Positions 12,995-36,922 of a DNA stretch of 64,000 nucleotides are shown here, piece by piece. Source of the stretch: an uncultured Solirubrobacterales bacterium. GTDB taxonomy: Bacteria; Actinomycetota; Thermoleophilia; Solirubrobacterales; Solirubrobacteraceae. Location of the stretch: the NCBI GenBank assembly GCA_963753145.1, contig CAVWAX010000001.1:39573-103572 (forward strand), in the 5' to 3' direction. Position 1 is the first letter of the stretch. Every line of letters starts with the position of its first letter. Below the pieces are notes generated by a model. That model had not been told where the DNA came from, did not search any database, and saw only the letters and a program-made list of their open reading frames with translations. The position numbers and the translations under genes were made by a program.

Positions 12995-14437
12995 TCAAGC
13001 GCCGTCGCTCGCGAACAGCTGCGCGTAGCGATCGAGATGGCGGTCGCCAAGGAACTCGGCGGCGGCACGGGCGTGTGCGCGCTCGCCCATCTCGGCAGCG
13101 GCCTCGGGCTCGGTGAGTAGTCGTTCGATCAGGGCGCCGAAGGCGACGAGATCGTGGGGGTCCTCCAGCAGCAGGCCGTGCTCGCCGTCGGTGATCTGAT
13201 CTGCGATGCCCCCGACCTTGCTGGCGACGATCGGTCGCGACTTCCACATCGCCTCGGTGACGGTCAAGCCGAAGCCCTCGGCGAGGCTCTTTTGCACCAC
13301 CACGGTCGCGTGGCGCTGCAGCGCGTTGACTATCGCCGAGGCCTCGTCGGGGTCGGCCATCGGCAGGCACGCCAGGTGCACGCGCCCGCGGATCGCGTGA
13401 GGCAGCGAGCGCCAGCGCTCCACGCACTCGTCATAGACCCTGCCCGCCTCCGGGTCGTCGGCCACGCCCGTCACGACCGGCCCCATCAACAGCAGATGCG
13501 CGCCGAGCGCGGGGTCGACGTGGTTGACGAAGCCTTCCATCACGCCCGCCATGTCCTTCAGATAATCCCAGCGCGAGACCTGCACGACCATCGGCGCCTC
13601 CTCTCGCGCGGAGGGTCCGCTTTGCAGGATGTCAACATGACGGTCGATCCGCCCCGGCGAGCCGTCGCGCCGCGCGAACGGCACCACCGGTCGAGCGTCG
13701 TCGCCGTCGAGCACGCCGACGTAGCTGAGCGCCAAACGCACGTTGCGGTGCGACATCGGCTCGTTCTTGGCCGAAAACGGGTCGATCGAAGGGGGTATCA
13801 CGTGCGTCCTTGCGCTATCCGCCCAGGGTGGAGCGAACGGCGCCCGCGAGACCACATAATCGTCGGCGCCCTCCAGGTAGGGGCGCAGAAACTCCCAAGC
13901 CCGTTCGGTCCAGTCGTTGGGCCGGTCGCACCCGACGTGGCATCGCCAAATCACGCGAGCGCCGGCGCGCTTGATCGTGTCCACCAGGCCCGCTGGCTGA
14001 GGATCGTGGATGAGCACCACGTCGCCGGGTCTGACCAACGCCAGCAACTCCTCGCCGTTGCGGCGCAACACCCGCTCATAGTGATTGCGCTCGAGCTCTC
14101 CCAACTCGCCACCGTCGCCGGGGAAGCCGTACAGGCCGTTGTGGATTCGCTTGGTGATGTCAAAGAACTCGGGGTCGCCTTGGATGACCAGCCAGCGAGC
14201 GTCGACGCCGGCGCCGCGCACGTAAGCGAGCAGCGTTTGCAGCATCTCCGCGACGCCGCCACCGGCCGCGGTGGAGCTGATGTTGAGCACGGTGTGACCG
14301 GCCAGCGTCCTCTGGGCGGCATCCGCGACCCGCTCGAAATTAGCCATCCGCCGCGTTCCGATCAGCGGCTCCAGGCGCGCGGCGTCGAGCGCCTGGACCT
14401 CGACCTCCTGCAATCTCACCTTTGCGTGGCTGCTCAT
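12995..14437 (-). CDS. GT4 glycosyltransferase, TreT-like trehalose synthase
   Basis: STAAGGGVAEML, IHDPQP, WRCH, VSRWDYLKD, QKSLAEGFGLTVTEAMWK. Confidence 0.85.
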   Translation of the reverse strand: MSSHAKVRLQEVEVQALDAARLEPLIGTRRMANFERVADAAQRTLAGHTVLNISSTAAGGGVAEMLQTLLAYVRGAGVDARWLVIQGDPEFFDITKRIHNGLYGFPGDGGELGELERNHYERVLRRNGEELLALVRPGDVVLIHDPQPAGLVDTIKRAGARVIWRCHVGCDRPNDWTERAWEFLRPYLEGADDYVVSRAPFAPPWADSARTHVIPPSIDPFSAKNEPMSHRNVRLALSYVGVLDGDDARPVVPFARRDGSPGRIDRHVDILQSGPSAREEAPMVVQVSRWDYLKDMAGVMEGFVNHVDPALGAHLLLMGPVVTGVADDPEAGRVYDECVERWRSLPHAIRGRVHLACLPMADPDEASAIVNALQRHATVVVQKSLAEGFGLTVTEAMWKSRPIVASKVGGIADQITDGEHGLLLEDPHDLVAFGALIERLLTEPEAAAEMGERAHARAAAEFLGDRHLDRYAQLFASDGA

Positions 14438-14608
14438 CCGCTCGGTCACGCCATCAAGGGGTGTGGTCAAACTCGTATTCGAGTGAGCAGTTTGCCGCGA
14501 TGTGCCGTCGATGTATGGGCGTCAGGATGTGCATAGAGCGTGAGTGTTCCGTTGGGAACGACCGCCAAACCGGCCAGCGACAGGACGCCGCGATATGCCG
14601 CACGGCAC

Positions 14609-16003
14609 TCACGCTCTCCCTTTTACCCGCAAGTGCTCGGCAAACCACTCGCCCGCAAGCCGGCTCACCTGCTCGAGCGCGCCCGGCTCTTCGAACAGGT
14701 GCGTCGCGCCCGGCACGATCTCCAGCCGGCTCTCGCAGCGCAGGCGGCGCTGGGCCGCCCGGTTGAGCTCGAGCACCTCGGCATCGGCGCCCCCCACGAT
14801 CAACAGGGTCGGCGCTCTCACCGCATCCAAATTGTGGGCGAGGTCCGGACGTCCCCCGCGTGAGACGACCGCGCCAACCCTCGAGCCGAGTATTGCGGCG
14901 GCGCTCAGCGCGGCCGCCGCTCCGGTGCTCGCGCCGAATAGCCCCAGCGGCAGGTGCGCGACATCCGGCTGCTCGGCCACCCAATCGCAAGCGGCCTGGA
15001 GTCAACCAGTGAGCATGTGAATGTCAAAGACGTTGGCTCGATCCGCCGCCTCGCTCGCGCTGAGCAGGTCGAACAGCAACGTCGCCAGGCCCGCCTCGTT
15101 CAGGGAACGGGCGACCGCCCGGTTGCGGTCACTGAGCCGGCTCGACCCGCTGCCGTGCGCGAACGTCACCATCCCCCGCGCATCCTCGGGCACGACCAGT
15201 TCGCCCTCCAACTCGACGCCCGAGTATGCCCGAACGAACACGTTCCGCCGTCGCGGCCCCGCATCGGGAGCCGCCCTGGACGAGATGGCCTGATCGCCAG
15301 GACCGGCGAGCAGTCGCGCCACTTCGCGGTCGGTGGTGGGCTGAAAGTCCTCATACCACGCGCCCACAGCCCAGAGCTCGGCTGGTTCCTCGACGCACAC
15401 GACCTCATCGGCGCGCTCGCGAAGCGCTCTCGCGGACTCGGGCGCCGCCACGGGCACGGCGAGAATCACGCGCGTCGCGCCCTGTTCGCGCAAGGATGCG
15501 ACCGCGGCCGCCGCCGAGTTGCCCGTGGCAAGCCCATCGTCAACCAAGATCGCGGTGCGGCCCGTCAAGTCGATCGACGCGCGCTCGCCTCGATAGCGCC
15601 GCGTCCGCTCCTCGAGCTCGCGCCGCGCGCGGGCCACGACCGCGCGCAGGGCGGGTGTCGGCAGGTTAAGGGACCGGACCGTGTGCTGGTCGAGCAGGTA
15701 CACACCATCCTCGGCGAGAGCGCCGATCGCGAACTCCGGGTTCTGGGGCGCGCCGATCTTGCGAACCACGACCACCTCAAGCGGCGCGTCGAGGCCCCAT
15801 GCGACCTCCGCGGCAACCGGCACGCCGCCGCGCGGGATGCCGACGACAACCGGATGCTCGCCCGCGAACCGCCGAAGCAATGGGACCAGCTTACGTCCGG
15901 CCTCGTGGCGATCTGAGAAACGCGCCGAGCTCGACACGAGCACGGGCGGATCCTCGACCGAGGTCACGGCGCCGGTCCAGCGTCCATCGTCCAGCCGTGT
16001 CAT
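14609..16003 (-). pseudogene. Phosphoribosyltransferase + dienelactone-hydrolase-like fusion interrupted by an in-frame TGA at 15002-15004
   Basis: PRTase motifs GIPRGGVPVA and ILVDDGLATG; hydrolase HGSGSSR..FDIHMLTG*LQAACDWVAEQ..LFGASTGAA..PGATHLFEE. The frame is the same on both sides of the stop. Confidence 0.85.
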
Positions 16004-16839
16004 AGCGCTCCGCTGGTTCGGCGCATAGCAACGCGTATGCCCTGCGAACGTCCGGTGAACGTCGAGGACGAGTCACGTTTGGTCTTCCGGCTCTGAGCCT
16101 CCGACAACGGTTCGAGAAGCAGTCGCGCGACGTCGTGCGGCGAGCGCTCCGCAAGGTCCATCGTCGTGAAGTCGACGATCCGCGAGCGCAGCTCGCTATC
16201 GAGCGCGCGCGCGACCGAGGACCAGCGGTCCTTCGGGGCTGCGATGACGAGATGTGCGAAGGCTTGGCGCCGATGAGCCCGTAGGAGCAGCCTCGCGAGT
16301 CGCTGAGCGTGGGAGACCAGATCGTCCTTGAGGACCGACAGCGCGAGCGATCCCGAGCGGTCGCCGAGAAAGCCACAGCCGTTGTGGATGGTCGCGAACT
16401 CGACGAGCGCCTGTGGGCGCCCGCGCAGCAGACGCGCCCCTTGAGCGCTCAAGATCGCCACCCCCCAGTCGCCCTCGGTGAAGCTGGCGGCCAGCGGCTC
16501 CAGCCAGCGCTCGCTGTCCAGCACCACGAGCTCCTGGACCTGGGAGGGCAGCTGGATCGTCACCGTCGACTCTCCCCCGTCCAGGTCGAAGAACATGGCC
16601 AGGCCACGCGCGCCGGGCCTGAGCGCCGGCAAGGCGCGCGTGGCGGCGAGTACCTGCTCGAGACGCTCCTCGCCGATGCGCTCTCTCATACCGGCGCTCA
16701 ACCGCTCCAGTTTCTCCACACTCACGCCGAGATCCGTGGTTGGATCCACCTCCAGGTAGACGCTCAGAACCGAACGGCCGCCGCGCTCGGACTCTCTGAG
16801 CCGCCGCAGCGTGCCCGCGCCTATCGTCGGCGGAGGCAT
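16000..16839 (-). CDS. aeRF1-like (baeRF/Balon-like) protein lacking GGQ and the C-terminal domain
   Basis: VLSVYLEVDP, ARGLAMF, LEPL..WGVAILSAQGARLL, LVIAAP. No GGxSQ/GGQ motif. ATGA-coupled to the PRTase gene. Confidence 0.65.
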   Translation of the reverse strand: MPPPTIGAGTLRRLRESERGGRSVLSVYLEVDPTTDLGVSVEKLERLSAGMRERIGEERLEQVLAATRALPALRPGARGLAMFFDLDGGESTVTIQLPSQVQELVVLDSERWLEPLAASFTEGDWGVAILSAQGARLLRGRPQALVEFATIHNGCGFLGDRSGSLALSVLKDDLVSHAQRLARLLLRAHRRQAFAHLVIAAPKDRWSSVARALDSELRSRIVDFTTMDLAERSPHDVARLLLEPLSEAQSRKTKRDSSSTFTGRSQGIRVAMRRTSGAL

Positions 16840-16851: not shown

Positions 16852-17289
16852 TCAACCCGCCGTGGGCGTGATCGTGACGGTCTCCTTCTCCTGCTTGGCG
16901 GGGAGTGGAATCGTCACCTCGACCACGCCGTCGTGCGTCTGTGCCTTGATCGCTTTGGCGTCAACTCCGGCGGGCAGAGCCATCGAGCGACGGAAGGACC
17001 CATAGCGGCGCTCGCGTCGCAGATACTGCTTGTCCTTCTTCTCCTCGCTCTCCACGTGCTCGCCGGACACGGTCAGGATGTCGTCCTCCACCTCGATCTT
17101 GACCTCCTCGGGCTTGATCCCGGGGATGTCCGCGCGGAGAACGAGGTTGCCGTCCTCGTGCTCGATGTCCACGGCAGGCGTCCAGGTCCGCGCGTGACCC
17201 TCGAACATGTCCTCGAACATGCGATCGAACCGGCTGCGCAGCTCGCCAAGTTCGGCGAACGGCTCCCAGCGGGTGAGTGCTCCTGGCAT
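16852..17289 (-). CDS. Hsp20/alpha-crystallin small heat-shock protein
   Basis: WTPAVDI, ADIPGIKPEEVKI, ERRYGSFRRSMALP, DGVVEVTIP; GGAGGAG RBS. Confidence 0.95.
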   Translation of the reverse strand: MPGALTRWEPFAELGELRSRFDRMFEDMFEGHARTWTPAVDIEHEDGNLVLRADIPGIKPEEVKIEVEDDILTVSGEHVESEEKKDKQYLRRERRYGSFRRSMALPAGVDAKAIKAQTHDGVVEVTIPLPAKQEKETVTITPTAG

Positions 17290-17467
17290 TGCTCCTCCTT
17301 TGGGTCGGTGTGTAACGGTGAAGCGAAGGTAGTCCCAGCCCGCCGTCCCCGCATCGGGATACAGCCCCGCCTCCCATCCGTAGTGATCACCGATGCGCCG
17401 CCGCGCCCCGCGCGGGATCCTTCTCGTGACGGTCAGCTCATCTGACACACCGATCCAGGAGCCCGCC

Positions 17468-17896
17468 ATGAGCGATGTCGATCCCAGCATCATCGAGCGC
17501 AGCGTCGAAAAGACTCACATCTGGTTGAACGATGTGGCGGAAGAGCTGGGCACAGACGACCGCCAGTACGCCTATCGCGCGTTGCGCGTCGTCCTGCACG
17601 CGTTGCGCGACCGTTTGACAGTCGACGTCGCCGCCAAGTTCGCCGCGCAACTGCCCACCCTGATACGAGGGATCTACTACGAGGACTGGGATCCAAGCCG
17701 CACGCCGCTCCCGATCCACGACGTCGAGGCGTTTCTCGATCGCATCGTCCAGGAGGGACGCATGGCAGGCGAGACCGAGGCATCGATAGCGGTGACCGCG
17801 GTCGCACATGTTCTGCGCCGGCATGTCAGCCCAGGGGAGATCGACGATGTGCTCGCGGTGCTTCCCGACAGGCTCAAGGCGCTCATCGGCGCTTGA
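17468..17896 (+). CDS. DUF2267 family protein
   Basis: KTHIWLNDV, AYRALRVVLHALRDRL, AAQLPTLIRGIYYEDW; CAGGAG RBS. Confidence 0.85.
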   Translation: MSDVDPSIIERSVEKTHIWLNDVAEELGTDDRQYAYRALRVVLHALRDRLTVDVAAKFAAQLPTLIRGIYYEDWDPSRTPLPIHDVEAFLDRIVQEGRMAGETEASIAVTAVAHVLRRHVSPGEIDDVLAVLPDRLKALIGA

Positions 17897-17932: not shown

Positions 17933-19312
17933 TCACAGCGCGCTCGGATAGGTCTCCGGCGGCTCGCCGAGATCCCAAGCCGGCGTGCGCTCGAGTGGCT
18001 CAACCGCTCGCGTGAGGTCGAGGTGAACGAGCGCGTCGAACTGACGTGCGGCGCTCGCGGCGAAGAGATGGCTTTGGCGCTCTGTCTCAGGCCGGTAGAT
18101 GACTCCGATCGCCCGCTCCAAGCGCGGCTCGAGTAGGGCCCGACCGCTCTCCCCGGCGGTTAGCGGACAGAGCAGGAAGGCGCTCATGCCGGTCGCATGA
18201 AGGAGAGCCTCATAGCTGTCGGGGTGCGCCGGCCGTATCTGCTTGCGCTCGGCGGGTCCGCCCCAGCCAGAGCTTGCGGTGACAGTCCCGGCATAGGTGG
18301 TGAATCCGACGTTGACCACGTCGCGACCGTGGCGCTCGCGCATGAGCTGGCCGAGGTTGATCTCTCCCCGCCTCGCCATCTCGGTCGCGCGGGCGTCACC
18401 GATATGGGAGTTGTGCTCCCATACGACCACGCGCGCGGTGCCACCGTGGCGGTCCAGGTGAGCCAGCAGGTGATCGAGCGTGTCGGCCATGTGACGGTCG
18501 CGCAGGTTCCACGAGCCCGCCTGGTCGCCGAACATCGTGCGGTAGTACTCCTCGGCGTTGGCCACCACGGCCGCGTTCTGCTCGGCGAAGAAGTACTCGT
18601 CCTCGGCAAGCGCTCCGTCCCGATATAGGTACTCGCCAGCGCGCCTGCGCAGTTCGACGAGCTGCTCTATCACCGCTCGCCGGCACGGCTCGCTGACACC
18701 CAGCAAGACCGATTGGCCGTAGTCCGAGCTCTGCCCGGCGTAGGGTTGGAGGCACTCGTAGCGCGCCCGCGCCCGCGCGGCGGCGTCGGGGTCGTGCTCG
18801 TCGAGGTAGCCGATCACGCACTCCATCGAGGCTCCGAGGCTGTAGAGGTCCAGTCCGTACACGCCGACCCTGCGAGCTCCTCGCCCGAGGCCGTCGTTGT
18901 GGGTGCGCAGCCAGCCGACGAGGTCGAGTACGTCGGCGTTGCGCCACATCCAGCTGGGGAAGCGCTGAAATCCGCGCAGGGCCTCCTCGGCGTCGCGGTC
19001 CTCGCCGGCGCCGTTGACATAGCGGCCCGCGCGGTGGGCGTCCGGCCAGTCGCCCTCGATCGCGAGCGCCGTGAAACCTTGCTCGGCGATCAGGCGCTTG
19101 GTGATGCGTGCGCGCTCGCGGTAGAACTCGTGCGTGCCGTGGCTTGCCTCCCCGAGGAGCACGATCCGCGCGTTGCCGATCCTGGCAAGCAGCGTGTCGT
19201 AGTCGCGGCCATCGCCCCCGAGCGGATGCGCCTCGGCGCGCAGGGCATCGAGGATCGCGCTCTCGCCAAGCGGCAAGGAGCCTGGGGTTGTGGCGCTCAG
19301 CCGTGCGGGCAT
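17933..19312 (-). CDS. Erythromycin esterase family protein
   Basis: LLGEASHGTHEFY, AIEGDWPDA, FPSWMWRN, YGLDLYS, WEHNSHIGDARAT, ERAIGVIYRP. Confidence 0.92.
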   Translation of the reverse strand: MPARLSATTPGSLPLGESAILDALRAEAHPLGGDGRDYDTLLARIGNARIVLLGEASHGTHEFYRERARITKRLIAEQGFTALAIEGDWPDAHRAGRYVNGAGEDRDAEEALRGFQRFPSWMWRNADVLDLVGWLRTHNDGLGRGARRVGVYGLDLYSLGASMECVIGYLDEHDPDAAARARARYECLQPYAGQSSDYGQSVLLGVSEPCRRAVIEQLVELRRRAGEYLYRDGALAEDEYFFAEQNAAVVANAEEYYRTMFGDQAGSWNLRDRHMADTLDHLLAHLDRHGGTARVVVWEHNSHIGDARATEMARRGEINLGQLMRERHGRDVVNVGFTTYAGTVTASSGWGGPAERKQIRPAHPDSYEALLHATGMSAFLLCPLTAGESGRALLEPRLERAIGVIYRPETERQSHLFAASAARQFDALVHLDLTRAVEPLERTPAWDLGEPPETYPSAL

Positions 19313-20355
19313 ATCACCGCGCGACCGTCGATCTGGCCGGCGCGCAGCTGCTCGTAGACCTCGATCGCATGGTCGAGCGGGTAGTGCTGGACGTGCGCCT
19401 TGATCTTGCCAACCTCGGCAAGTGAGAGCACCTCGATCAGCTCGATGGCACTGCCCCAGTAGGTGGTCGAGAGCGAGCACTCATACGGCTGGGAGAAGAA
19501 CGAGAAGGGGAATGAGCCGCCCGCGAGGCCGACGATCGTGACGTCGCCCTCGGCGCGTCCGGACTGAGCGGCGAGCGAGATCGTCTCCTCGGCGCCGACG
19601 ATGTCGAGCACGAGCTCCGCGCCGCGCCCCTCGGTCGCCTCGTGGATCCGTTCGACCGCGCTCTCGCCGGCCTGCACCGTTACATCCGCGCCGACCTCGG
19701 CCGCCAGGGCCAGCTTCTCGGGCGAGGTGTCAACGGCCACGATGCGCGTGGCCGACAGCGCCTTCAAGATCTGGACGGCCATGTGCCCAAGACCACCCAC
19801 GCCGATCACCACCGTGGTGGAGCCCGGTGTGAGCTTGTGCAAGGAGCGCTTGACGGCGTGATAGGGGGTGAGCGCCGCGTCACTCAGCGGCGCGGCGTCG
19901 CGCGGGTCCAAGTCACCCAACGGCACGAGCAGGCGCGCTGCCGGCACAAGCAGGTATTCGGCCATCCCGCCGTCCAATCCAAGCCCGCCGCCCATCACGG
20001 CGATCTCGTTCTGACGCTCGCAGTAGTTCTCGCTCGAGCGTCTACAGGCGCGGCATCGACCACAGCCCCAGGGCCCGTACACGGCCACGGCGTCGCCGAC
20101 GGCGACGGTGTCTACTCCCGCTCCGACGCTCTGCACCCACCCGGCGTTCTCGTGGCCCAGCGTGAACGGTGGGTTGAAGGGCATCTGCCCCTCAGGCCAG
20201 TCCATCAGGTGCAAGTCCGAATGGCACGCGCCTGCCCCGGCGACCTTGAGGAGGACCTCGCCGGGCCCGGGAGCAGGAACGGGGACCTCGAGCAGTTGCG
20301 GCGGCTGTTGCCAGGCTACGAGCCGCAATGCTCGCATCGTTTGCGGCGCGCTCAT
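19297..20355 (-). CDS. Zn-dependent NAD(P) alcohol dehydrogenase
   Basis: GACHSD, TLGHE, CGRCRAC..ENYC, GVGGLGH. Confidence 0.93.
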   Translation of the reverse strand: MSAPQTMRALRLVAWQQPPQLLEVPVPAPGPGEVLLKVAGAGACHSDLHLMDWPEGQMPFNPPFTLGHENAGWVQSVGAGVDTVAVGDAVAVYGPWGCGRCRACRRSSENYCERQNEIAVMGGGLGLDGGMAEYLLVPAARLLVPLGDLDPRDAAPLSDAALTPYHAVKRSLHKLTPGSTTVVIGVGGLGHMAVQILKALSATRIVAVDTSPEKLALAAEVGADVTVQAGESAVERIHEATEGRGAELVLDIVGAEETISLAAQSGRAEGDVTIVGLAGGSFPFSFFSQPYECSLSTTYWGSAIELIEVLSLAEVGKIKAHVQHYPLDHAIEVYEQLRAGQIDGRAVICPHG

Positions 20356-20536
20356 CGGGGCCTCCGTCCGCTTGTCTCATAGACACGACGGCGCGGCTCG
20401 GCGACCGGATGTGTATTCGGATTGATCGCCATATTCGTCGCAGCACACCTTAGGGGGGCGGGTCGAACTGCGCATCGGAAGACTGCCGCGCGCGACAGGG
20501 CGAAAACTACGTACTCGCCAAAACTGCGCCACCCGC

Positions 20537-20651: not shown

Positions 20652-20675
20652 CGACTGCGGGATATTCCGCAGTCG
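20652..20675. promoter_or_regulatory. Perfect inverted repeat CGACTGCGG-N6-CCGCAGTCG upstream of sqr
   Basis: 9-bp arms with a GATATT spacer, 53 bp before ATG 20729. Confidence 0.55.
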
Positions 20676-20728
20676 TCGCGCGGCTTGGCCACGTTGTCGG
20701 CGGGAGCCCGCTCCCGCAGGATGGAGCG

Positions 20729-22312: not shown

Positions 22313-22337
22313 GACAACCACGGACCGAGGCAATCAT

Positions 22338-22805: not shown

Positions 22806-22864
22806 TCAACGAGCGCCGCGATCTGCCACGATCATGATGTCCCCCCGTCCGCAAAGGAGAAGCC

Positions 22865-23635: not shown

Positions 23636-23657
23636 CACGGTTAATCATTTTGCTGTT

Positions 23658-27438: not shown

Positions 27439-29836
27439 GCCGATCTCCGCTCGAGGCCTCTCCCAGCGAGAGGCCGACGCCCGCCTGGCGCAGCTCGGCG
27501 CACCCCCCAAGCCCGCGTCCAGCCGCTCCTACCGGAGCATCGTGCGGGCGAACGTCTTCACGGTCTTCAACCTGATCCTGGCAGTCTTCGGTGCGCTCAC
27601 ACTGGCCTTCGGGGATTGGCGCGACGCCCTGTTTCTGGGGGTGATCGTGGCCAACACGACGATCGGCATAGCCCAAGAGACCCGTGCCAAGCGAGCGCTC
27701 GACCGCCTGGCCCTGCTCGTTGCGCCCCGTGCTCGCGCGATCCGCGACGGCGAGCCGCGCGAGATCGCCGTGGGCGAGGTGGTCCCCGGAGATCTGATCC
27801 GGGTCGGTCCCGGCGAGCAGATCGTCGCCGACGGTGAGCTGCTCGAGGCCCACGAACTGCGCCTCGACGAGTCCATCCTCACGGGCGAGAGCGAGCCCGT
27901 GGAGCGGGCTCCCGGGGATAGCGTGCGCTCCGGCGCGTTCGTCGCCGAGGGCGCCGGCGCCTACCTCGTCCAGGCCGTCGGAGAGCACAGCTTCGCGGCA
28001 CGCATCGTCGGTCAGGCGCGAACCTTCAGGCACCCCCGTTCCCCGCTCGAGCAGGCCGTCAACCGGCTCCTCTACGGCCTCGTCGTCCTCATGGTCGGCC
28101 TCGGAGCGGTGCTCGGCTACTCCCTCTATCACCGCCACGTCCCGATCCACGAAGCCGTCTCCACCTCGGTCGCCGGCGCCGTCAGCCTCGTGCCCGAGGG
28201 CCTGATCGTCCTGCTCAGCCTCACCTACGCCGTCGCCTGTATCCGCATGGCCCGTCGCGGCGTGCTTGCCCAACAGCTCAACGCCATCGAGTCGCTCGCC
28301 TCCGTCGAAGTCATCTGCGTCGACAAGACCGGCACGCTCACCGAGTCCGCTCTGCGGGTGGCCGGCGTCGAGGCGGCCCCCGGCACAAGCCGGCGCGAGC
28401 TGACAGACGCCCTCGCGCGCTTTGCCGCCTCGGCCTCCGCCCCCAACGCGACCCTCCGAGCCGTGGCGGACGCCTTTCCGGGCGAGCCCGAGCCCGTCGA
28501 GCAAGAGACCCCGTTCAGCTCCAAGCGGCGCTTCTCGGGGCTGCGCTTCGGTGCGGTCACATACGTGCTCGGCGCTCCCGAGCGCCTGCCCTTGGGTGAG
28601 CTCGCCGAGCGAGCCCAACAGCTCCAGCGCGAAGGGCGCCGCGTGCTCGCGCTGGCCGTCGGCGGCGTCGCCCGCGACCCTGTTCTCGAAGGTATCGCCA
28701 CCGGGGATCGCGCCTCGCAAGATCGCGCATGGCGAGACGATGACGCACTGGCACTCGACCTGCGCCCGATCGGCCTGGTCATGCTCGCCGAGAGCCTGCG
28801 ACCCAACGTGCGCGCCACCGTCTCGTTCCTGCTCGAGCAGGGCGTCGAGGTGAAGGTCCTCTCCGGCGACGCCCCCGCCACCGTCGCGGCGATCGCCCGC
28901 GACGTCGGGATCCCCGCCGAGCGCGTCTTCGACGGCAGCGAAATCCCGGACGGTCCCGAGGAGCTACGCGACTTCGCGCTCGCGGCCAACGCGATCGGAC
29001 GTATCTCACCCGAGGGCAAGCACGCGATCGTCTCCACCCTGCACGACGCCGGCCGTTACGTCGCGATGCTCGGCGACGGCGTCAACGACGTCCCCGCCCT
29101 CAAGCGCGCCCGCCTCGCGATCGCCCAGGGCAGCGGCGCCCAGATGGCACGCTCCATCGCCGACCTGGTGCTCGTCGACGGCGACTTCGACGCGATCCCT
29201 GCCCTCATCCACGAGGGCCGCCAAGCGCTGCGCAACCTCCAGCGCGTCACCAAGCTCTACGTCACCAAGTCCGCCTTCGCCGCCTTCCTGATCCTCACGA
29301 TCGGCACCAGCTCCGAGGCCTACCCACTGCTGCCGCGCCATCTCAGCCTCGCCGCCGCCCTGGCGATCGGGATCCCCACCTTCTTTCTTGCCTTGGCCCC
29401 CTCACGGGGAGCGTGGCGGCCCGAGGGCTTCGTGCGTCGCGTCGCCCGCTTCGCCGTCCCCGCCGGCACGATCGTCGGCGTGGGCACCGTCACCGGCTAC
29501 CTGTTCGCCCTGCACGACCTCGACTACTCGGTGATCCAGGCCCGCACGATCGCCACCACGGTCCTCGTACTGGTGGGCCTGTATCTGGTCCTGGTGCTCG
29601 AGTCCACCGGCTCCGTGCGCCGCTCGGGGATCGTCGGCGCCATGTGCTTCGCGCTCGCCGGCGCCTACGCCGCCGTCCTGCTGCTACCCGCCACGCGCCA
29701 CTTCTTCCAGTTCGCGGCTCCCGGCGCCGGCATGCTCGCCACCGCCCTGCTCGCCGCCGCCGTCTCGATCGGAGCGCTCGTGCTCTCGGGCTTCGGCCTC
29801 AGTGCCTCCACGCGCTCGGCCGAGCTCACCGGGTGA
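27392..29836 (+). CDS. P-type cation-transporting ATPase (CtpE-like)
   Basis: DESILTGESEP, LVPEGL, VDKTGTLT, VLSGD, MLGDGVNDVPAL. Confidence 0.9.
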   Translation: MSTFEHTPPASPARPEPISARGLSQREADARLAQLGAPPKPASSRSYRSIVRANVFTVFNLILAVFGALTLAFGDWRDALFLGVIVANTTIGIAQETRAKRALDRLALLVAPRARAIRDGEPREIAVGEVVPGDLIRVGPGEQIVADGELLEAHELRLDESILTGESEPVERAPGDSVRSGAFVAEGAGAYLVQAVGEHSFAARIVGQARTFRHPRSPLEQAVNRLLYGLVVLMVGLGAVLGYSLYHRHVPIHEAVSTSVAGAVSLVPEGLIVLLSLTYAVACIRMARRGVLAQQLNAIESLASVEVICVDKTGTLTESALRVAGVEAAPGTSRRELTDALARFAASASAPNATLRAVADAFPGEPEPVEQETPFSSKRRFSGLRFGAVTYVLGAPERLPLGELAERAQQLQREGRRVLALAVGGVARDPVLEGIATGDRASQDRAWRDDDALALDLRPIGLVMLAESLRPNVRATVSFLLEQGVEVKVLSGDAPATVAAIARDVGIPAERVFDGSEIPDGPEELRDFALAANAIGRISPEGKHAIVSTLHDAGRYVAMLGDGVNDVPALKRARLAIAQGSGAQMARSIADLVLVDGDFDAIPALIHEGRQALRNLQRVTKLYVTKSAFAAFLILTIGTSSEAYPLLPRHLSLAAALAIGIPTFFLALAPSRGAWRPEGFVRRVARFAVPAGTIVGVGTVTGYLFALHDLDYSVIQARTIATTVLVLVGLYLVLVLESTGSVRRSGIVGAMCFALAGAYAAVLLLPATRHFFQFAAPGAGMLATALLAAAVSIGALVLSGFGLSASTRSAELTG

Positions 29837-29876: not shown

Positions 29877-30272
29877 TCAGCCCGCGTCAAGCTCGCTAAC
29901 CAGCGAGCGAACGAGCCGGTCGATCTCGTCGCGCGTCGCGCGCACCTCTGAGATCGGCCGGCCCTTGGGGTCGGGCAGATCCCAATCGATGTAGCGCTTG
30001 CCCGGGATGTAGGGGCAAGCGTCGCCGCAGCCCATCGTCACGACCACGTCGGCCCGCTCCGCAAGCTCGTGCGTCAGCGGCTGTGGGTGGCGCTCGGCCA
30101 GGTCGATGCCCAGCTCGAGCATCGCCTCCACCACCTCCGGATGCACATGCTCGGCGGGTGTCGTGCCCGCGGACTCAGCGCTGTGGCGCCCCCGCGCCGC
30201 CCGCTCGAACAGCGCCTGGCTCATCTGCGAGCGACCCGCGTTATGAAGGCACACGAACAGCGCCCGCGCCAT
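29877..30272 (-). CDS. arsC: Arsenate reductase (LMW-PTP fold)
   Basis: FVCLHNAGRSQM (CX5R), VVTMGCGDACP, WDLPDPKG. Confidence 0.9.
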   Translation of the reverse strand: MARALFVCLHNAGRSQMSQALFERAARGRHSAESAGTTPAEHVHPEVVEAMLELGIDLAERHPQPLTHELAERADVVVTMGCGDACPYIPGKRYIDWDLPDPKGRPISEVRATRDEIDRLVRSLVSELDAG

Positions 30273-30996
30273 CGCGGCTCGCCTCCTCCTGGTGGGGCAA
30301 CAGCACCTCGGCCGCCTCCGCTGGGGTCACGCCGGGGTAGAGCGTCCTGATGAGCAGCACCGCGCAAGCGCCGCCGAAGAGCTGCGCGACCACATATCCC
30401 GGCACCGACGAGGGCGCGATGCCCGCGAACGTGTTCGAGAAGATGCGTCCCACCGTGATCGCCGGGTTGGCGAAGCTGGCCGAGCTCGTAAAGAAGTAGG
30501 CCGCCCCGATATACGCGCCCACCGCCGCCGGGATCGTGTTTGCGCGTTTGGTGCGCGCAAGCGAAAAGATCACCAGCAGCAGGCCGGCCGTAGCGATCGC
30601 CTCGGAGAACAGGTGCGCCGGCGAGGCCCGGTGGTGGGTCGAGATGCTGATCGCCGCGAGCGAGAACATCGCGTTGGCGGTGACCGCCCCGCCGATGCAG
30701 CCCAACACCTGGACCGGGATGTAGGCCAGCGCGTCGCGCCAAGCGATCCCACCGAAGCCCGCGTCGGCCAGCGACACGACCGGGTTGAAGTGCCCACCCG
30801 ACACCGGCCCGAACATCAGGATGATCGCGAACAGCCCGGCGGCCGTCGCCACCGCGTTCTCCAATAGCTGCAACCCCACATCGCCCGGCGAAAGCGTCTG
30901 CGCGGCGATGCCCGATCCGATCACCAGCGCCGCGAGCAGCCCTGAGCCGAGCAGCTCGGCCAGCAGGCGGCGGTGCAGTGGCGGCGAGGTATCCAC
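30241..30996 (-). CDS. MIP/aquaporin channel (AqpS-like, arsenic associated)
   Basis: GHFNPVVS and FANPAITVGR loops; overlaps arsC; TAGGAT 6 nt before GTG. Confidence 0.88.
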   Translation of the reverse strand: MDTSPPLHRRLLAELLGSGLLAALVIGSGIAAQTLSPGDVGLQLLENAVATAAGLFAIILMFGPVSGGHFNPVVSLADAGFGGIAWRDALAYIPVQVLGCIGGAVTANAMFSLAAISISTHHRASPAHLFSEAIATAGLLLVIFSLARTKRANTIPAAVGAYIGAAYFFTSSASFANPAITVGRIFSNTFAGIAPSSVPGYVVAQLFGGACAVLLIRTLYPGVTPAEAAEVLLPHQEEASRDGAGAVRVPS

Positions 30997-31053: not shown

Positions 31054-31153
31054 TGGTCGATCTGGGTCGGGCCGCTGTGCCGGCTTCTACGTAGTCTCGC
31101 GCGGGGACTTTCCCGATGTCGTGGGCGCCGACGTGGCGTAGCGTCGAGACACG

Positions 31154-31501
31154 ATGACCCCCATCGCCAACCGAGTGGACGCGACGCCCCGGGTGCTCGA
31201 CTTGCTGGAGCGCCTGCGGGCTCGCTACGGCCCGCTGGCGATCCACCAGTCGGGCGGCTGCTGTGACGGCAGCTCCCCGATTTGCCTGCCTTCGGCCGAG
31301 TTGCCGCCCGGCCCGGACGACGTCTTGCTCGGCGTCATCGGCGAGACGCCGGTCTACATCGACGGCGACCAGGACGAGCGCTGGCTGCGCCCCTCGCTCT
31401 CACTCGACGTAGCCCCCGGCGCCGCCATGGGCTTCTCCTTGGAGGGCGTCGAAGACGTTCACCTCGTCGCCCTGGATTCGTGCGTCCTGGAGGGTCGCTA
31501 A
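31154..31501 (+). CDS. DUF779 family protein
   Basis: HQSGGCCDGSSPIC, LDVAPG..GFSLEG. Confidence 0.85.
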   Translation: MTPIANRVDATPRVLDLLERLRARYGPLAIHQSGGCCDGSSPICLPSAELPPGPDDVLLGVIGETPVYIDGDQDERWLRPSLSLDVAPGAAMGFSLEGVEDVHLVALDSCVLEGR

Positions 31502-32656
31502 TGCCGGGTCGCAGCGTGCGCATAGCGCGCATCGCCGGCATACCCGTCGGGGTGAGTCCGTGGTGGCTTGCGATCGTCGCGCTCATCACCTGGTCGCTCG
31601 GCGCCTCCTACTTCCCCGAAGCGATCCCCAACATCGCCCCCGCCGCCTCCTACGCGCTCGGCCTGGCAAGCGCGCTGCTCCTGTTCGCGAGCATCCTCGC
31701 CCACGAGTTCGGCCACGCGCTGGTCGCGCGCCGTGCCGGCATCGAAGTCGAAGAGATCGACCTCTGGCTCTTGGGCGGCGTCTCGCGCATGAAGGGCGAG
31801 GCCCACGATCCCCGCGACGAGCTGCGCTACGCCTTGGCGGGCCCGCTGGTCACCGCCGCGATCGCCGTGTGCTTCCTGATCGCGGCCCTTCTACTGCCGG
31901 CCTCCACGCCGGCCGCGGTTCGCGTCTTGGTCGAATACCAAGCGCTCGTCAACGGCCTGATCCTCGTCTTCAACATGCTCCCGGCCTTCCCGCTGGACGG
32001 CGGGCGCGTGTTGCGCTCGCTGTTGTGGCGGCGCTCCGGCGACATCGGCAAGTTCGACCGCCACCGCCGCGAGCGTCGGTCGGGGCTTCGGCTACGTGAT
32101 GATCGGTCTCGGGCTGCTCGAGTTCCTCAGTGGCCAGCCCACCGGCCTGTGGCTGGCGCTGATCGGCTTCTTTATCGTCATGGCGGCCGGCTCGCAGGCG
32201 GTCGGGGCTCAGATCCAGGCCGCGCTCTCGGGCGTGCACGCTTCAGACTTGATGTCCACGCCCGTCATCAGCATCCCCGAGCGCACCTCCGCCTTGCAGG
32301 CCACCACCGACTATTTCGTGCCCTACCGCTACACGGCCTTCCCCGTGGTGGACGATCGCGGGCGCGCCACCGGCCTGCTCAGCATCGGCCTGGTGGACCG
32401 CCTCACCCGCTCCCAGCGCGCGGCCCAATGGGTCGCCGACGTCGCCGACCACGACCCCTCGCTGCTGGTCGCCCGCGGCGAGGATGTCGCGCGCGTGCTC
32501 GAGCGGCCCGCGTTTGCCCGCGTCGGGCGCGCCGCCGTCGTCGACGAGGACGGCGCCCCGATCGGCCTGCTCTCGATCACCGACGTCCAGCGCGCACTGC
32601 GCGCCGCCCGCATCGCCGAGCCGGCCGGCGGCGGCCACGCGGGCGTCAGTCGCTGA
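31501..32656 (+). pseudogene. Site-2 (M50) protease with CBS domains, +1 frameshift at ~32053 (possible sequencing error)
   Basis: HEFGH and FNMLPAFPLDGGR. The frame changes at AAGTTCG, then a CBS pair follows (FPVVDD, GLLSITD). The span is 1156 nt (3n+1). Confidence 0.85.
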
Positions 32657-32918
32657 GAGCCTCGCCGTCGGCCTCGCCGTAGACCGAGTCCGAGGACTCC
32701 TCGTCGAGCCCGTTGGCGTCCTGCAAGACGCGCCCGGCGCTGTGCTCGTCGCCGTGCGAGGCGTGTTCGATCAGCTCCTGCTCGGCCTGCTCGAAGCCCT
32801 CGGCCTCGCCGCCGCCCGCTTCTTCGACCGCGCGGCGCTCTTCGCGGTGGCGCTCGTTGCGGTTCATCAGCGGCTCGGCCTTGCTCTGCTCGGTCGGTCG
32901 GGGCGCGTCTTGGTCCAT
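32646..32918 (-). CDS. Small acidic hypothetical protein
   Basis: AVEEAGGGEAEGFEQAEQELIEHASHGD; codon pattern typical of real genes in this window. Confidence 0.6.
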   Translation of the reverse strand: MDQDAPRPTEQSKAEPLMNRNERHREERRAVEEAGGGEAEGFEQAEQELIEHASHGDEHSAGRVLQDANGLDEESSDSVYGEADGEALSD

Positions 32919-33514: not shown

Positions 33515-33701
33515 TGATTCGTTCCCTTCGGGCGTTTTCTAGCCACGCATACTCCCGTTCGCCCGCCCCCGCTCCATCCGCACCCACCACGCGCCTCGCT
33601 CGGGGATTTACCACATGGCCGCGCGGGTTGGGTAGTTATCCGCAGCCGAACACGGCTTTACGCGGCTGTCCGGCCGGCGCGCCGCGCCTAACGTGCCGGC
33701 C

Positions 33702-34136
33702 ATGTCCAACTGCATGGTGCTCGGCTATGACCGCACAGAAAGCGCCCGCTTGGCGGCCAAGTGGGCGCTCGAGCGCCTGCTGCCCGACGGCAGGCTCGTG
33801 ATAGTCCACTCCTGCCGCCCCCTGCACGCCCCGCCCTCGCCGCTCTCGGGCGCCGAGGAGCGTCATCGACTCGGTCGCGACCTCGTCGACGAGCTGCTGC
33901 TCGAGGGCGAGGACTCGCTGTTCGACCTCGATGTCGAGGTCGAGGTCTCAGACGAGGACCCCGTCTCCGCGCTCAGCGAGGCCGCCCAGCGCTACGGGGC
34001 CGAAGCGATCGTCGTCGGCTCCGAGCACCACTCGCGCCTGCACAAGGCCTTGGGCACCGTCACGACCGAGCTGCTGCAAAAGGCGCCCGTGCCGGTCATT
34101 GTGGTGCCCCAAAGTGCCCGCGTCGACGCGGTTTGA
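33702..34136 (+). CDS. Universal stress protein
   Basis: MVLGYD, AIVVGS, LGTVTTELL..PVPVIVVP; TAACGT 7 nt upstream. Confidence 0.85.
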   Translation: MSNCMVLGYDRTESARLAAKWALERLLPDGRLVIVHSCRPLHAPPSPLSGAEERHRLGRDLVDELLLEGEDSLFDLDVEVEVSDEDPVSALSEAAQRYGAEAIVVGSEHHSRLHKALGTVTTELLQKAPVPVIVVPQSARVDAV

Positions 34137-34193: not shown

Positions 34194-35162
34194 TCACGGC
34201 ACGATCACGCCGGCCCCGACGAAGCGCCCATTGCGCAGATCCTCGAGCGCCTCGGCGGCTCGCTCCAGGGGATAGCTGGTCACGTGCGTATGAACGGGAA
34301 CCTCGGGCGCCAGCGCCAGGAACTCGCGCGCGTCCGCCCTGGTCAGGTTGGCGACCGAGCGCACCGTCCGCTCCCCCCACAACAGCTCATACGGAAAGGA
34401 GGGGATGTCGCTCATGTGGATGCCGCCGCACACGACCGTCCCGCCCGGCGCCGTGGCGCGCAGCGCCGCCGGCACCAGCGCCCCGTCAGGCGCAAACACG
34501 ATCGCGGCATCGAGCGGCTGTGGTGGGGACTGCTCGGAGGACCCCGCCCACGCGGCGCCCAGTTCCAGCGCGAAGCTCTGAGCCGCCTCGTCGCCAGGGC
34601 GCGTGAAGGCCACGATCTCGCGACCCTGCCAGACCGCCACCTGGGTGACGATGTGCGCGGCCGCGCCGAAGCCATAGATCCCGATGCGCCGAGCCTCGCC
34701 GCACATCCGCAGCGCCCGGTAGCCGATCAGCCCGGCGCAAAGCAGCGGCGCGGCCTGCTCGTCCGGATAGCCCTCGGGGATGGGAAAGCAGTAGCGCTCG
34801 TCGGCAACCGCGTATTCGGCCATGCCCCCGTCGATGTCACAGCCCGTGAAGCGCGCGCGTGGGCAGAGGTTCTCCCGTCCGCTTCGACACCACTCGCACT
34901 CGTCGCAGCTCCAGCCGAGCCACGGCACCCCGACGCGTCCGCCGTCCGGCTCGACCGTGGCCACGATCTGGTGGCCCAGCACCCGCGGTGGCGAGCGCAC
35001 CTTCACCTCGTTGTCGAGCAGATGCAGATCGGTGCGACACACCCCGCAGGCCTTCACCCTCAACAGCAGCTGCCCAGGTCCCGGCTCGGGAACCGGGAGC
35101 GTCGCGACGCGCAGTGGACGCCCCGGGCCGTCGAACACGATCGCGCGCATCTGATCGGGCAT
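34194..35162 (-). CDS. Zn-binding alcohol dehydrogenase family protein
   Basis: GVCRTD, VLGHQ, CDECEWC..ENLC, LLCAGLIGYRAL, YGFGAAA. Confidence 0.92.
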   Translation of the reverse strand: MPDQMRAIVFDGPGRPLRVATLPVPEPGPGQLLLRVKACGVCRTDLHLLDNEVKVRSPPRVLGHQIVATVEPDGGRVGVPWLGWSCDECEWCRSGRENLCPRARFTGCDIDGGMAEYAVADERYCFPIPEGYPDEQAAPLLCAGLIGYRALRMCGEARRIGIYGFGAAAHIVTQVAVWQGREIVAFTRPGDEAAQSFALELGAAWAGSSEQSPPQPLDAAIVFAPDGALVPAALRATAPGGTVVCGGIHMSDIPSFPYELLWGERTVRSVANLTRADAREFLALAPEVPVHTHVTSYPLERAAEALEDLRNGRFVGAGVIVP

Positions 35163-35185: not shown

Positions 35186-36217
35186 GTGGGCGCCATGAAC
35201 AGCGGTCTCTATTTCGAGCACCCCGCCTGCCTGGAGCACGACCCGCGTGCGCACATGCCCTCGCATCCGGACACGCCCGAGCGTTTGCTGGTGCTCGAGC
35301 GCGCGCTGGCCGCCCGCGATTGGCTCGGCTGGGAGCGCTGCCAAGCGGACCCCGCGAGCGAGCGCGAGCTGGAGTTGGTCCACAGCCCCCACCACGTCCG
35401 CGCGATCCGCGAGCTGTGCGCGGGCGGGGGAGGCGCGATCGACGCCGACACCTACGTCGGCGAGGCCTCCTACCGCGCCGCCCTGTACGCGGTCGGCGCC
35501 GCATGCGCGATGACCCGCGCGCTGGTCGAGCGCGAAGCCGAGTTCGGCTTCTGCGGCGTGCGACCCTCCGGACACCACGCCGAGCCCGACCGTGCGATGG
35601 GCTTCTGCCTGTTCAACAACGTCGCGATCGCCGCCGAGTACGCGATCCGCGAGCTGGGCGTCCGGCGCGTGTTCGTGCTCGACTGGGACGTCCACCACGG
35701 CAACGGCACCGCCGAGGCCTTCCGCCGGCGCTCAGACGTCCTGTTCGCGAGCATCCACCAGTCCGGTCTCTACCCCGGCACCGGCCCGCTCGGCGACGTC
35801 GGCAGCGGCGCGGGCGAGGGCTACACGATCAACCTTCCGGTGCCCGCCGGCAGCGAAGAGGACCTGTGGCTGTCGCTGCTCGAGCACATCGCGCTGCCGG
35901 CCGCAGCCGCATTCCAGCCCGAATTGGTGCTGCTCTCAGCCGGCTTCGACGCCCACCGTGCCGACCCGCTCGCCGGGGTGCGCCTGGAGACAGAGTCCTT
36001 CGGCGAGATGACCCGCCACCTGCGCGACATGGCCCGCGGCGCCGGTGCGCCGCTGGGTGCGATACTGGAGGGCGGCTACGAACCTAAGGTCCTGGCCGAC
36101 TGCGTGATCGAGACCCTACAAGCGCTCGGTGACCCGCGCGAAGCACACTCTGCGGCACCCGAGCCGCTCTTGACCTCCCGCGCCGCGGCCCAGATCGGCC
36201 GCTACTGGTCGCTATGA
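35186..36217 (+). CDS. Histone deacetylase family protein
   Basis: HPDTPERL, RPSGHHA, GFCLFNN, DWDVHHGNGT, SAGFDAH, LEGGY. Confidence 0.93.
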   Translation: MGAMNSGLYFEHPACLEHDPRAHMPSHPDTPERLLVLERALAARDWLGWERCQADPASERELELVHSPHHVRAIRELCAGGGGAIDADTYVGEASYRAALYAVGAACAMTRALVEREAEFGFCGVRPSGHHAEPDRAMGFCLFNNVAIAAEYAIRELGVRRVFVLDWDVHHGNGTAEAFRRRSDVLFASIHQSGLYPGTGPLGDVGSGAGEGYTINLPVPAGSEEDLWLSLLEHIALPAAAAFQPELVLLSAGFDAHRADPLAGVRLETESFGEMTRHLRDMARGAGAPLGAILEGGYEPKVLADCVIETLQALGDPREAHSAAPEPLLTSRAAAQIGRYWSL

Positions 36218-36922
36218 CTCTTTGATCAGGCCCCGTTTGAGCGCGTAGCCGACGAGCTCGGCGCGCGAGGACAGGTTCAGCTTCTGCTGGATGTGGGCCC
36301 GATGTGTCTCCACCGTGCGCACCGACAGGAACAGCTGCTCGGCGATCTCCGCGTTGGTGTGCCCCAGCGCGATCAGACGAAGCACGTCCACCTCGCGCTC
36401 GCTCAGATCGTCGGGCGGTCCCGGCGCCGGCTCTGAGGCCAGACGCGCGCCCAGGCGCGGGTTCAGGTAGCTCTCCCCGCGCGCCGCCCTGCGCACCGCC
36501 TCGACAAGCTCGTCGTCAGCGGCCTCCTTGAGCACGTATCCGATCGCGCCCGCGCTGAGCGCGTGGCGCGCAAAGGCGGGCTCCTGCTGCATCGTGAGCA
36601 CCACTATCTCGGTGTCCGGGCTTTTCTTGCGGATCTCCGGGATCGCCTCGAGGCTCGAGCCGCCCGGCATGTTCAGATCGAGCACCAGCACAGCCGGATG
36701 GTGTCCGCGCACGTAGCGCTCGGCGCTTTCCACGTCGCCTGCTTCGGCGACCACCTCGAAGTCGCTCTCGGTCTCGAGCAGCAGACGCAATCCGCTGCGC
36801 ACCACCGCGTGGTCGTCGGCCAGCACGATGCGAATCGTCTTGCGGCTCTCATCGCCCTGGGCGCTCGCCTGTCCCGGCTCGGCCTCGCGCGCCTGCTCGA
36901 CCTGCTGACCCTGTTCGCTCAC
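36212..36922 (-). CDS. NarL/FixJ-family response regulator (NreC-like)
   Basis: LADDHAVVRSGL, LDLNMP, YVLKEAA, LSEREVDVL, VRTVETHRAHIQQKL; TAGCGT 7 nt before GTG. Confidence 0.92.
   Translation of the reverse strand: MSEQGQQVEQAREAEPGQASAQGDESRKTIRIVLADDHAVVRSGLRLLLETESDFEVVAEAGDVESAERYVRGHHPAVLVLDLNMPGGSSLEAIPEIRKKSPDTEIVVLTMQQEPAFARHALSAGAIGYVLKEAADDELVEAVRRAARGESYLNPRLGARLASEPAPGPPDDLSEREVDVLRLIALGHTNAEIAEQLFLSVRTVETHRAHIQQKLNLSSRAELVGYALKRGLIKES

Follow-up and report, generated by a model that had tools for sequence, protein, structure and literature searches.

Genes of the block

We examined a block of about 24 kb (positions 12995-36922) within a 64-kb stretch of DNA, hereafter the window, from the metagenome-assembled genome (MAG) of an uncultured member of the Solirubrobacterales (Solirubrobacteraceae, Thermoleophilia). 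The gene content of the block closely parallels that of the DosR regulon of Mycobacterium tuberculosis, and at least three of its operons have a conserved promoter in common. The assembly comprises 3.29 Mb in three contigs, and the block makes up 0.7% of the genome. Because the G+C content of the window is 65-71%, raw lists of open reading frames were noisy. We called genes by third-position G+C and then checked the calls with Pfam and NCBIfam; copy numbers in the genome were determined by tblastn. The G+C content was even (0.65-0.71) apart from a slight drop over the hypothetical genes at 22-26 kb. All of the gene families that an initial annotation of this DNA had named were located within the block. 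The genes on which our analysis centers, with their Pfam matches, are the following.

12995-14470, minus strand: TreT-type trehalose synthase (GT4); TreT_GT1 (153.8 bits) and Glycos_transf_1
14609-16003, minus strand: phosphoribosyltransferase (PRTase) fused to an alpha/beta (dienelactone-type) hydrolase, as in Rv0571c; Pribosyltran (74 bits)
16000-16839, minus strand: baeRF family 10 protein (aeRF1-like, of the Rv2629/Balon kind); baeRF_family10 (29.6 bits, cut-off 27.1)
16852-17289, minus strand: Hsp20/alpha-crystallin, first gene of its operon; HSP20 (91.9 bits)
17468-17896, plus strand: DUF2267 protein, divergent from hsp20; DUF2267 (132.5 bits)
17933-~19300, minus strand: erythromycin-esterase family protein (Ere), gene 2 of the ADH-Ere operon; Erythro_esteras (438.7 bits)
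19297-20355, minus strand: first zinc-dependent alcohol dehydrogenase (Zn-ADH), gene 1 of the ADH-Ere operon; ADH_N and ADH_zinc_N
26386-27438, plus strand: tandem universal stress protein (USP), overlapping the ATPase gene; Usp in two stretches (98.4 bits)
27392-29836, plus strand: P-type cation ATPase; E1-E2_ATPase and Hydrolase
31154-31501, plus strand: DUF779 protein, coupled to the M50-CBS gene; DUF779 (100.8 bits)
31498-32682, plus strand: M50 metalloprotease with a CBS pair (Rv2625c-like architecture); Peptidase_M50 (76.5 bits) and CBS (52 bits)
33693-34136, plus strand: single-domain USP; Usp (67.7 bits)
34194-35150, minus strand: second Zn-ADH; Pfam
35186-36217, plus strand: HDAC-family deacetylase; Pfam
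36212-36922, minus strand: NarL/GerE-type response regulator; Response_reg and GerE

The start of hsp20 is preceded by a ribosome-binding site, AAGGAGGAG. Downstream, the baeRF gene overlaps the PRTase-hydrolase gene, and the TreT gene (NCBIfam TreT, E=8e-71, under the equivalog cut-off) is the final co-directional gene behind the operon. The baeRF protein also had a weak match, in its N-terminal part only, to the NCBIfam MSMEG_1130-family hibernation factor (E=6e-8, 32 bits against a cut-off of 480), and the aeRF1-like protein had no sequence match in the PDB, including the solved Balon and Rv2629 structures. The tandem USP has two Usp domains in one chain, and its top PDB matches were the Rv2623 entries 2jax and 3cis. 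The Ere protein resembles the N-terminal part of Rv2030c.

Seven of the families (baeRF, Hsp20, Ere, PRTase-hydrolase, DUF2267, DUF779 and the single-domain USP) are present in single copy in the genome, and they are spread over at least four transcription units inside the 24 kb. Because seven single-copy families fall within 0.7% of the genome, their clustering exceeds chance.

A promoter design shared by operons of the block

We found a common promoter design by comparing the regions upstream of hsp20 in three genomes, where its register was identical. The design spans about 70 bp and consists of the sequence ACTAC(G/T)G or the complement GTAGT, a CCGATG(C/T)(C/G) box that follows after 27 or 32 bp, and a TA(G/C)NNT hexamer at the -10 position, 18 bp past the CCGATG box. 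It precedes three operons: hsp20-baeRF-PRTase/hydrolase (with TreT behind it), ADH-Ere, and DUF779-M50/CBS. In the ADH-Ere version, the upstream element lies one helical turn farther from the box. The spacing from box to hexamer is fixed at 17-19 bp, and these two elements are the most invariant columns of the alignment. The distance from the ACTAC/GTAGT element to the box is 27, 32 or 12 bp, which preserves helical phase. The promoters and related elements of the block are the following.

17320-17397, minus strand: hsp20 promoter; ACTAC at 17384-17380, CCGATGCG box at 17357-17350, TACCTT -10 at 17331-17326
20442-20513, minus strand: ADH-Ere promoter; TACGTAGT at 20513-20506, CCGATGCG box at 20478-20471, TAAGGT -10 at 20452-20447
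31082-31148, plus strand: DUF779-M50/CBS promoter; CTACGTAG at 31087-31094, CCGATGTC box at 31113-31120, TAGCGT -10 at 31139-31144
33632-33645, plus strand: element GTAGTTATCCGCAG, upstream of the single-domain USP
to 36970, minus strand: regulator promoter; GTAGTTCGCCGCAGGC from 36970, TAGCGT at 36935-36930

The genome was scanned with a regular expression (regex), a position weight matrix (PWM), and R1, a sequence profile made with Infernal from 23 sites. These scans replaced an nhmmer search with a four-sequence motif, which had recovered only its own training sites. As a regex, the strict pattern had four matches in the whole genome; three of the four were the island sites, all intergenic and correctly oriented. 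The three island sites also had the top three PWM scores across the 3.29 Mb. The best R1 match in the genome was the hsp20 promoter (E=7e-9 in the genome, 1e-10 in the window) and the second-best was the DUF779-M50/CBS promoter (2e-6 and 4e-8); for the ADH-Ere promoter, the E values were 1.5e-3 (genome) and 2.8e-5 (window). Since at least three operons have this conserved promoter in common, we consider it likely that they are co-regulated.

Weaker versions of the design precede DUF2267, the single-domain USP, the regulator gene and, on another contig (C3), a PpsA gene. R1 matched weakly before DUF2267 (17367-17412, E=0.0027 in the window) and before the single-domain USP (33637-33698, E=0.016 in the window), and it matched upstream of the PpsA gene with E=6e-4 in the genome, where the motif reads GTAGTTCTCCGCAG ... 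CCGATGCG. In the hsp20 promoter region, an inverted second box (17390-17397, plus strand) faces DUF2267. The single-domain USP, the regulator and PpsA have an element of the 14-mer type, GTAGTTnnCCGCAG, in common. A tandem USP paralogue and a P-type ATPase adjoin the PpsA site. They belong to a second small cluster (C3:640473-649165) that contains the tandem USP, a methyltransferase-like gene, an ABC ATPase, the P-type ATPase and PpsA.

There was no strong motif upstream of the USP-ATPase unit in this genome, though USP orthologues in relatives have the motif. For the second Zn-ADH and the HDAC-family gene, no motif was found upstream, and there was no R1 match below E=0.4 in the window.

Two other candidate elements were rejected. 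The count of GTAGT-N2-4-CCGCAG was no higher than that of controls, and its locations alone were suggestive. A 13-mer, TTTCCCGATGTCG, at 12053-12065 before an alpha/beta hydrolase gene has neither a -10 hexamer nor an upstream element; there are just two copies of this 13-mer in the 3.29-Mb genome, at 12053-12065 and 31109-31121.

Recurrence of the genes and the promoter in relatives

The same families recur jointly, with their order shuffled, in Solirubrobacterales genomes of the same genus. In one of these (G007), USP, DUF2267, Ere, PRTase, Hsp20 and baeRF genes are clustered, and in another (G004) the cluster consists of baeRF, Hsp20, PRTase, DUF2267 and CBS/M50 genes. Among 80 Ere loci, those from Solirubrobacterales have PRTase-hydrolase, DUF2267, M50/CBS, USP, ATPase, Hsp20, TreT and DUF779 genes nearby. 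In other phyla, only the core of Ere and PRTase-hydrolase remains linked (41 of 59 loci). Relatives of Ere that are 55-85% identical occur across many phyla and mostly adjoin a PRTase-hydrolase gene. At loci L043-L108, the Ere and PRTase-hydrolase proteins share 55-65% identity across Thermoleophilia, Acidobacteriota, Cyanobacteria, Chloroflexota, Gemmatimonadota and Proteobacteria, and their genes are usually adjacent. Ere and PRTase-hydrolase form a strongly conserved module, for which a macrolide esterase role is unlikely.

The promoter motif recurs as well. Eighteen of 20 newly fetched motif sites in relatives lie 30-250 bp upstream of a co-oriented gene. By Pfam, the genes behind the motif include hsp20, tandem USP, baeRF, PRTase, Zn-ADH, WS/DGAT, PfkB and AAA_33 kinase genes, together with PPDK-like, PpsA, MMPL, acyl-CoA ligase, aldehyde dehydrogenase, GT4 transferase and NarL regulator genes. 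The motif also precedes a DUF5335 gene that is followed by DUF2267. Orthologues of hsp20 in relatives (73-78% identity) have the same promoter upstream; Zn-ADHs lie behind it in three genomes (G005, G014 and G046), and USP orthologues are preceded by the motif in G005, G045, G019, L040 and L082. Strong R1 matches were found in two genera of the family, with weaker ones elsewhere in the class.

The island regulator and a haem-GAF kinase

The response regulator encoded at 36212-36922, one of three NarL-type regulators in the genome, is a generic member of the NarL family, with PDB matches to VraR (114 bits), NarL (106 bits) and DevR (100 bits (99.9)). Its recognition helix is RTVETHRAHI, as opposed to KTVKNYVSRL in DevR. 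The DNA-contact residues K179, K182 and N183 of DevR are not kept, the aligned helix being R-T-V-E-T-H. Judged by the aligned residues, the altered recognition helix is consistent with a different DNA target.

The regulator promoter, GTA(N)TTTCCCGCAG with TAGCGT, is kept before the five closest orthologues examined (L180-L184); upstream of the orthologue with 96% identity in L179, the sequence differs. We surveyed regulators and kinases in 41 genomes of the genus. About 30 of the 41 have an orthologue of the island regulator (74-96% identity), and in 12 genomes an orthologue is located no more than 25 kb from a motif site, where the chance expectation is about 4%. A 58%-identical paralogue of the regulator is directly motif-driven.

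Outside the window, at C3:1163821-1165533, the genome encodes a haem-GAF kinase of the DosT/DevS type, with the architecture GAF-GAF-HisKA_3. Its GAF-A domain matched DosT (2vzw) with E=2e-42 and DevS with E=2e-37, and the kinase keeps the haem His (GHPPM) and the distal Tyr (NLYLTEK). Besides this kinase, the genome encodes just one more of the HisKA_3 type, which has its own adjacent regulator. No regulator is adjacent to the C3 haem-GAF kinase in this genome. The genes beside it (C3:1165537-1167910) encode a PfkA-type phosphofructokinase and an FAD oxidoreductase, and are followed by a weak match to the motif (E=0.016) in front of two small membrane-protein genes.

Pairing of kinase and regulator was seen in other genomes of the genus. 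In seven, response regulators 74-82% identical to the island regulator are encoded within about 1 kb of kinase orthologues (63-71% identity), and in five of these the genes are adjacent. The regulator concerned is the best orthologue of the island regulator in three of the seven genomes and a close paralogue in four. A second kinase clade (about 50% identical) is convergently paired with a second regulator clade (about 57% identical) in at least 17 genomes, and the second-clade regulator is motif-driven in G043, G004 and G014. Taken together, these results associate the regulator family with haem-GAF kinases and with the motif regulon; for each promoter element, the binding protein named below is a candidate only.

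The regulator gene is also preceded by three other signalling genes on the same strand (Pfam), which are only possible members of the regulon.

37124-38140, minus strand: OmpR-type regulator
38285-39352, minus strand: REC-HD (HD_5) protein
39349-40602, minus strand: hybrid histidine kinase (HisKA)

Comparison with the DosR, OsdR and Balon systems

Members of the M. tuberculosis DosR regulon include hspX, USPs, Rv2625c, Rv1997, Rv0571c, Rv2629, Rv2030c and Rv2004c (PMC5309233). The parallel with this regulon, which the initial annotation had proposed, holds family by family. The families in common are Hsp20 (hspX), tandem USPs of the Rv2623 type, Rv2629, the Ere/PRTase protein Rv2030c, the PRTase-hydrolase Rv0571c and the M50-CBS protein Rv2625c, and the P-type ATPase adjoining a USP (Rv1996-ctpF) matches the USP-ATPase unit of the island. 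In relatives, families corresponding to tgs1 (WS/DGAT), Rv2029c (PfkB), Rv2004c (AAA_33) and dosR are also behind the motif. Counting effector families of the DosR regulon, we found seven in the window and three more (WS/DGAT, PfkB and AAA_33) behind the motif in relatives. A NarL-family regulator and a GAF-GAF-HisKA_3 haem kinase are present here too, and the kinase, like DosT, is an orphan encoded away from the regulator.

There are also clear differences. The box of the DosR regulon, a palindrome of about 20 bp with the core GGGACnnnnGTCCC, is absent here, and in its place we found ACTAC/GTAGT, CCGATGCG and TAGCNT. Allowing one mismatch to the GGGACnnnnGTCCC core, the DosR box had 2 matches in 64 kb versus 4.25 expected, neither of them in the promoters of the set. 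A relaxed DosR pattern, GGGMCNNNNGKCCC, had 0 matches in the window, and the exact box occurred at two sites in the genome (four strand-wise matches), none near the island. The DosR regulon is distributed over about ten loci, whereas the genes here are concentrated at one locus. It includes OtsB1 where the island has TreT, and we saw no nitroreductase, narK2X or nrdZ gene in the window. The regulator and kinase genes of relatives converge; here they are unlinked. The block also has content outside the analogy with DosR, namely SQR-DsrC-DsrE, glyoxalase, SnoaL, three hypothetical genes, ArsC(LMWP)-aquaglyceroporin, DUF779 and the HDAC-family deacetylase.

The OsdR/OsdK system of Streptomyces coelicolor is a DosR-type two-component system outside the mycobacteria, and the genes under its control, for USPs, a Zn-ADH and pyruvate phosphate dikinase, are clustered around the regulator (PMC5069765). 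Here as well, ADH and PpsA/PPDK-like genes are motif-driven. OsdR keeps a DosR-like palindrome, AGGGCCGATCGGCCCT, and binds mycobacterial targets (PMC5069765); there were no matches to this palindrome in the window. By analogy with these two systems, the regulon would work like DosR/OsdR, with the same sensor type, regulator family and effectors, but would differ from the mycobacterial system in two features that define it, the operator sequence and the DNA-contact residues. We found no description of such a regulon in Thermoleophilia in the literature searched.

A neighbourhood of aeRF1-like and hsp20 genes is common for Balon-type hibernation factors, whose genes occur in diverse stress operons that in some cases include alternative sigma factors (PMC10901736). 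As in the Balon/Rv2629 operons, the aeRF1-like gene of the island comes directly after hsp20. The island protein, predicted to bind the ribosome, is short (279 aa versus about 380-430 in relatives), and its sequence match to the family is marginal.

The proposal that the island was assembled independently of the mycobacterial regulon appears unlikely to be correct. Homology to mycobacterial counterparts extends to the sensor, the regulator family and about ten effector families, and Ere and PRTase-hydrolase are linked across phyla. For these reasons, an ancient shared toolkit with a re-specified cis-element and a lineage-specific arrangement would fit the sequences better.

A proposed regulon and its alternatives

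We lean towards the view that the island is the main locus of a small stress or dormancy regulon with DosR/OsdR-like content and a re-specified cis-element, controlled by the island regulator and the haem-GAF kinase. In the mechanism that we propose, transcription would begin about 7 bp beyond the -10 hexamer. This would place the CCGATG box at about -38 to -31. The ACTAC/GTAGT element would occupy positions one helical turn apart, at about -60 to -70, and so stay on the same face of the DNA, a placement that would have the geometry of an activator site. The putative activator is the NarL-type regulator, which would bind the promoter element after phosphorylation, and the C3 haem-GAF kinase would phosphorylate it when O2 falls or when NO or CO rises. 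The products would shut down and protect a non-growing cell through the Hsp20 chaperone, ribosome hibernation by the aeRF1-like protein, USPs, a compatible solute made by TreT, membrane proteolysis by the M50-CBS protein, and ion pumping. The Ere/PRTase/hydrolase module would add a conserved function of unassigned chemistry.

A more specific and more tentative version can be put forward. Thermoleophilia, or at least the family of this genus, may operate an ancient dormancy circuit, with a haem kinase as its sensor, from a wholly re-specified 'two-key' promoter. The first key would be an ACTAC/GTAGT operator for a DosR-family regulator, held in helical phase; the second would be a near-invariant CCGATGCG/TAGCNT core read by a dedicated sigma factor or adaptor. 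The sensor and effectors would have been kept and the interface between regulator and DNA replaced.

Several observations weigh against control by the island regulator and the haem kinase. The USP-ATPase unit, the second ADH, the HDAC gene and TreT are without a convincing motif in this genome, and in the genus the strict pattern is just about 4-fold commoner than a reversed control. The kinase is on a different contig from the island regulator and is without a neighbouring regulator; its orthologues in the five closest relatives are 1.3-2.4 kb from a different NarL regulator (about 51% identical), which is perhaps the true partner of the kinase. The signal to the island regulator could come instead from the hybrid HisKA kinase encoded in the same-strand row of genes. 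The box and the unusual -10 hexamer could mark an alternative sigma factor. Finally, the MAG is 90.8% complete, with at least one premature stop and one frameshift in the block.

The main rival explanation takes up the sigma factor. A general stress regulon, or one for starvation or desiccation, might be transcribed by a dedicated alternative sigma factor that reads CCGATGCG as a -35 element and TAGCNT as a -10 element, with or without the regulator; in its full form oxygen has no special role and the regulator is just a member. The fixed spacing and invariance of box and hexamer would suit such a factor, as would the regulator's own promoter, which has a variant of the box together with TAGCGT. 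Hsp20, USPs, a trehalose synthase and a hibernation factor fit any trigger of dormancy in soil, alternative sigma factors accompany some Balon-type operons (PMC10901736), and this genome encodes 19 sigma factors. However, there was no sigma-factor gene in the window or beside the motif clusters examined. The helical phase of ACTAC/GTAGT points to an additional DNA-binding activator, and haem-GAF kinases are physically paired with the regulator family across the genus. We regard the full form of this explanation, without a role for oxygen, as improbable though worth serious consideration.

A further alternative is that the island regulator is controlled by its same-strand neighbours, the hybrid kinase, the REC-HD protein and the OmpR regulator (37124-40602), in response to an unrelated signal, while the C3 kinase serves another regulator and other genes. 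The four signalling genes are on one strand with short gaps, and the closest kinase orthologues adjoin a different regulator. Outside the family, genome G028 has the OmpR and NarL orthologues (NarL 69% identical) side by side, 3 kb from a baeRF gene. NarL/GerE regulators usually partner HisKA_3 kinases, however, and the hybrid kinase is of the HisKA type. In addition, one genome (G038) has a 96%-identical regulator without the upstream signalling genes, and in seven genomes orthologues or close paralogues (74-82%) are next to haem-GAF kinases. Control by these neighbours is, in our judgment, quite unlikely. That the block is a fortuitous neighbourhood of common stress genes without shared control is very improbable: unrelated modules do interrupt it and several units are without the motif, but the clustering of single-copy families, a 70-bp promoter design that is otherwise almost absent from the genome, and the recurrence of both in relatives all argue against it.

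If the island and its promoter do form a regulon of the DosR/OsdR kind, there are several implications. The DosR regulon has been studied almost only in mycobacteria and Streptomyces, as a persistence programme of pathogens, and the presence of the same toolkit in deep-branching, uncultured soil Actinomycetota argues that the programme is an ancient one for dormancy in the environment. As the cis-element is a different one, the motif allows regulon members in these organisms to be listed independently from sequence. It could help to decide which of the poorly understood DosR genes (Rv2030c, Rv0571c, Rv2004c, Rv2625c and the DUF2267 family) belong to a conserved core. The 'two-key' promoter, if real, would be a natural test case for the rewiring of a whole regulon, and the rewiring could be tested with a few purified proteins.

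Interrupting and adjoining genes

Two groups of genes separate the units described above.

20729-26359, plus strand: SQR, DsrC/TusE-like (frameshifted), DsrE2, glyoxalase, SnoaL and three hypothetical genes; Pfam
29877-30996, minus strand: low-molecular-weight (LMW) phosphatase/ArsC-type reductase and MIP aquaglyceroporin; LMWPc (78.6 bits) and MIP (89.4 bits)

We treat the SQR, arsenic, glyoxalase and hypothetical genes, none of which has the complete promoter design, as insertions or neighbours that interrupt the island and not as established members. The ArsC(LMWP)-aquaglyceroporin genes are probably an arsenic-type pair unrelated to the regulon. The initial annotation had linked the island to the SQR genes and to a 2-oxoacid oxidoreductase operon. 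Neither link was borne out. The SQR operon lacks the full promoter design and has a partial, non-significant R1 match at 20659-20690. The oxidoreductase operon is connected to the island by proximity only, with RmuC, PIN toxin and DUF347 genes between them and no motif. The PIN-domain toxin gene (10609-11067), with a small upstream open reading frame (region 10335-11067), lies between RmuC and the DUF347 membrane protein and separates the operon from the island.

The SQR operon has a different palindrome, TGCGGGATATTCCGCA, at 20656-20671, 58 bp 5' of the SQR start codon and without a box; a near twin, TGCGGGAATTCCCGCA, is found at C1:679681. As a candidate island operator, the palindrome TGCGG-N4-6-CCGCA was rejected: it had 21 matches versus 35-70 for controls, and so was not enriched, and it occurred only before SQR and at one other AT-centred intergenic site. 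The DsrC/TusE-like gene between SQR and DsrE2 (21994-22311) requires a one-base change of frame near 22150, and its product ends in a typical PKPRGCI. Three abutting GC-rich palindromes, each centred on CATG, are located at 23658-23729 between the glyoxalase and SnoaL genes and could represent terminator-like or repeat elements.

An in-frame TGA (15002-15004) interrupts the PRTase-hydrolase gene at a position that is Arg in each of the 25 homologues aligned. In a read-through translation, the halves on either side of the TGA are otherwise well conserved; either the nonsense change is recent or the assembly is in error at this point. At the other end of the block, the end of the HDAC-family gene reaches 6 bp into the 3' end of the convergent regulator gene. 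In M. tuberculosis, acetylation of DosR is reported to tune the hypoxia response (PMC5861037).

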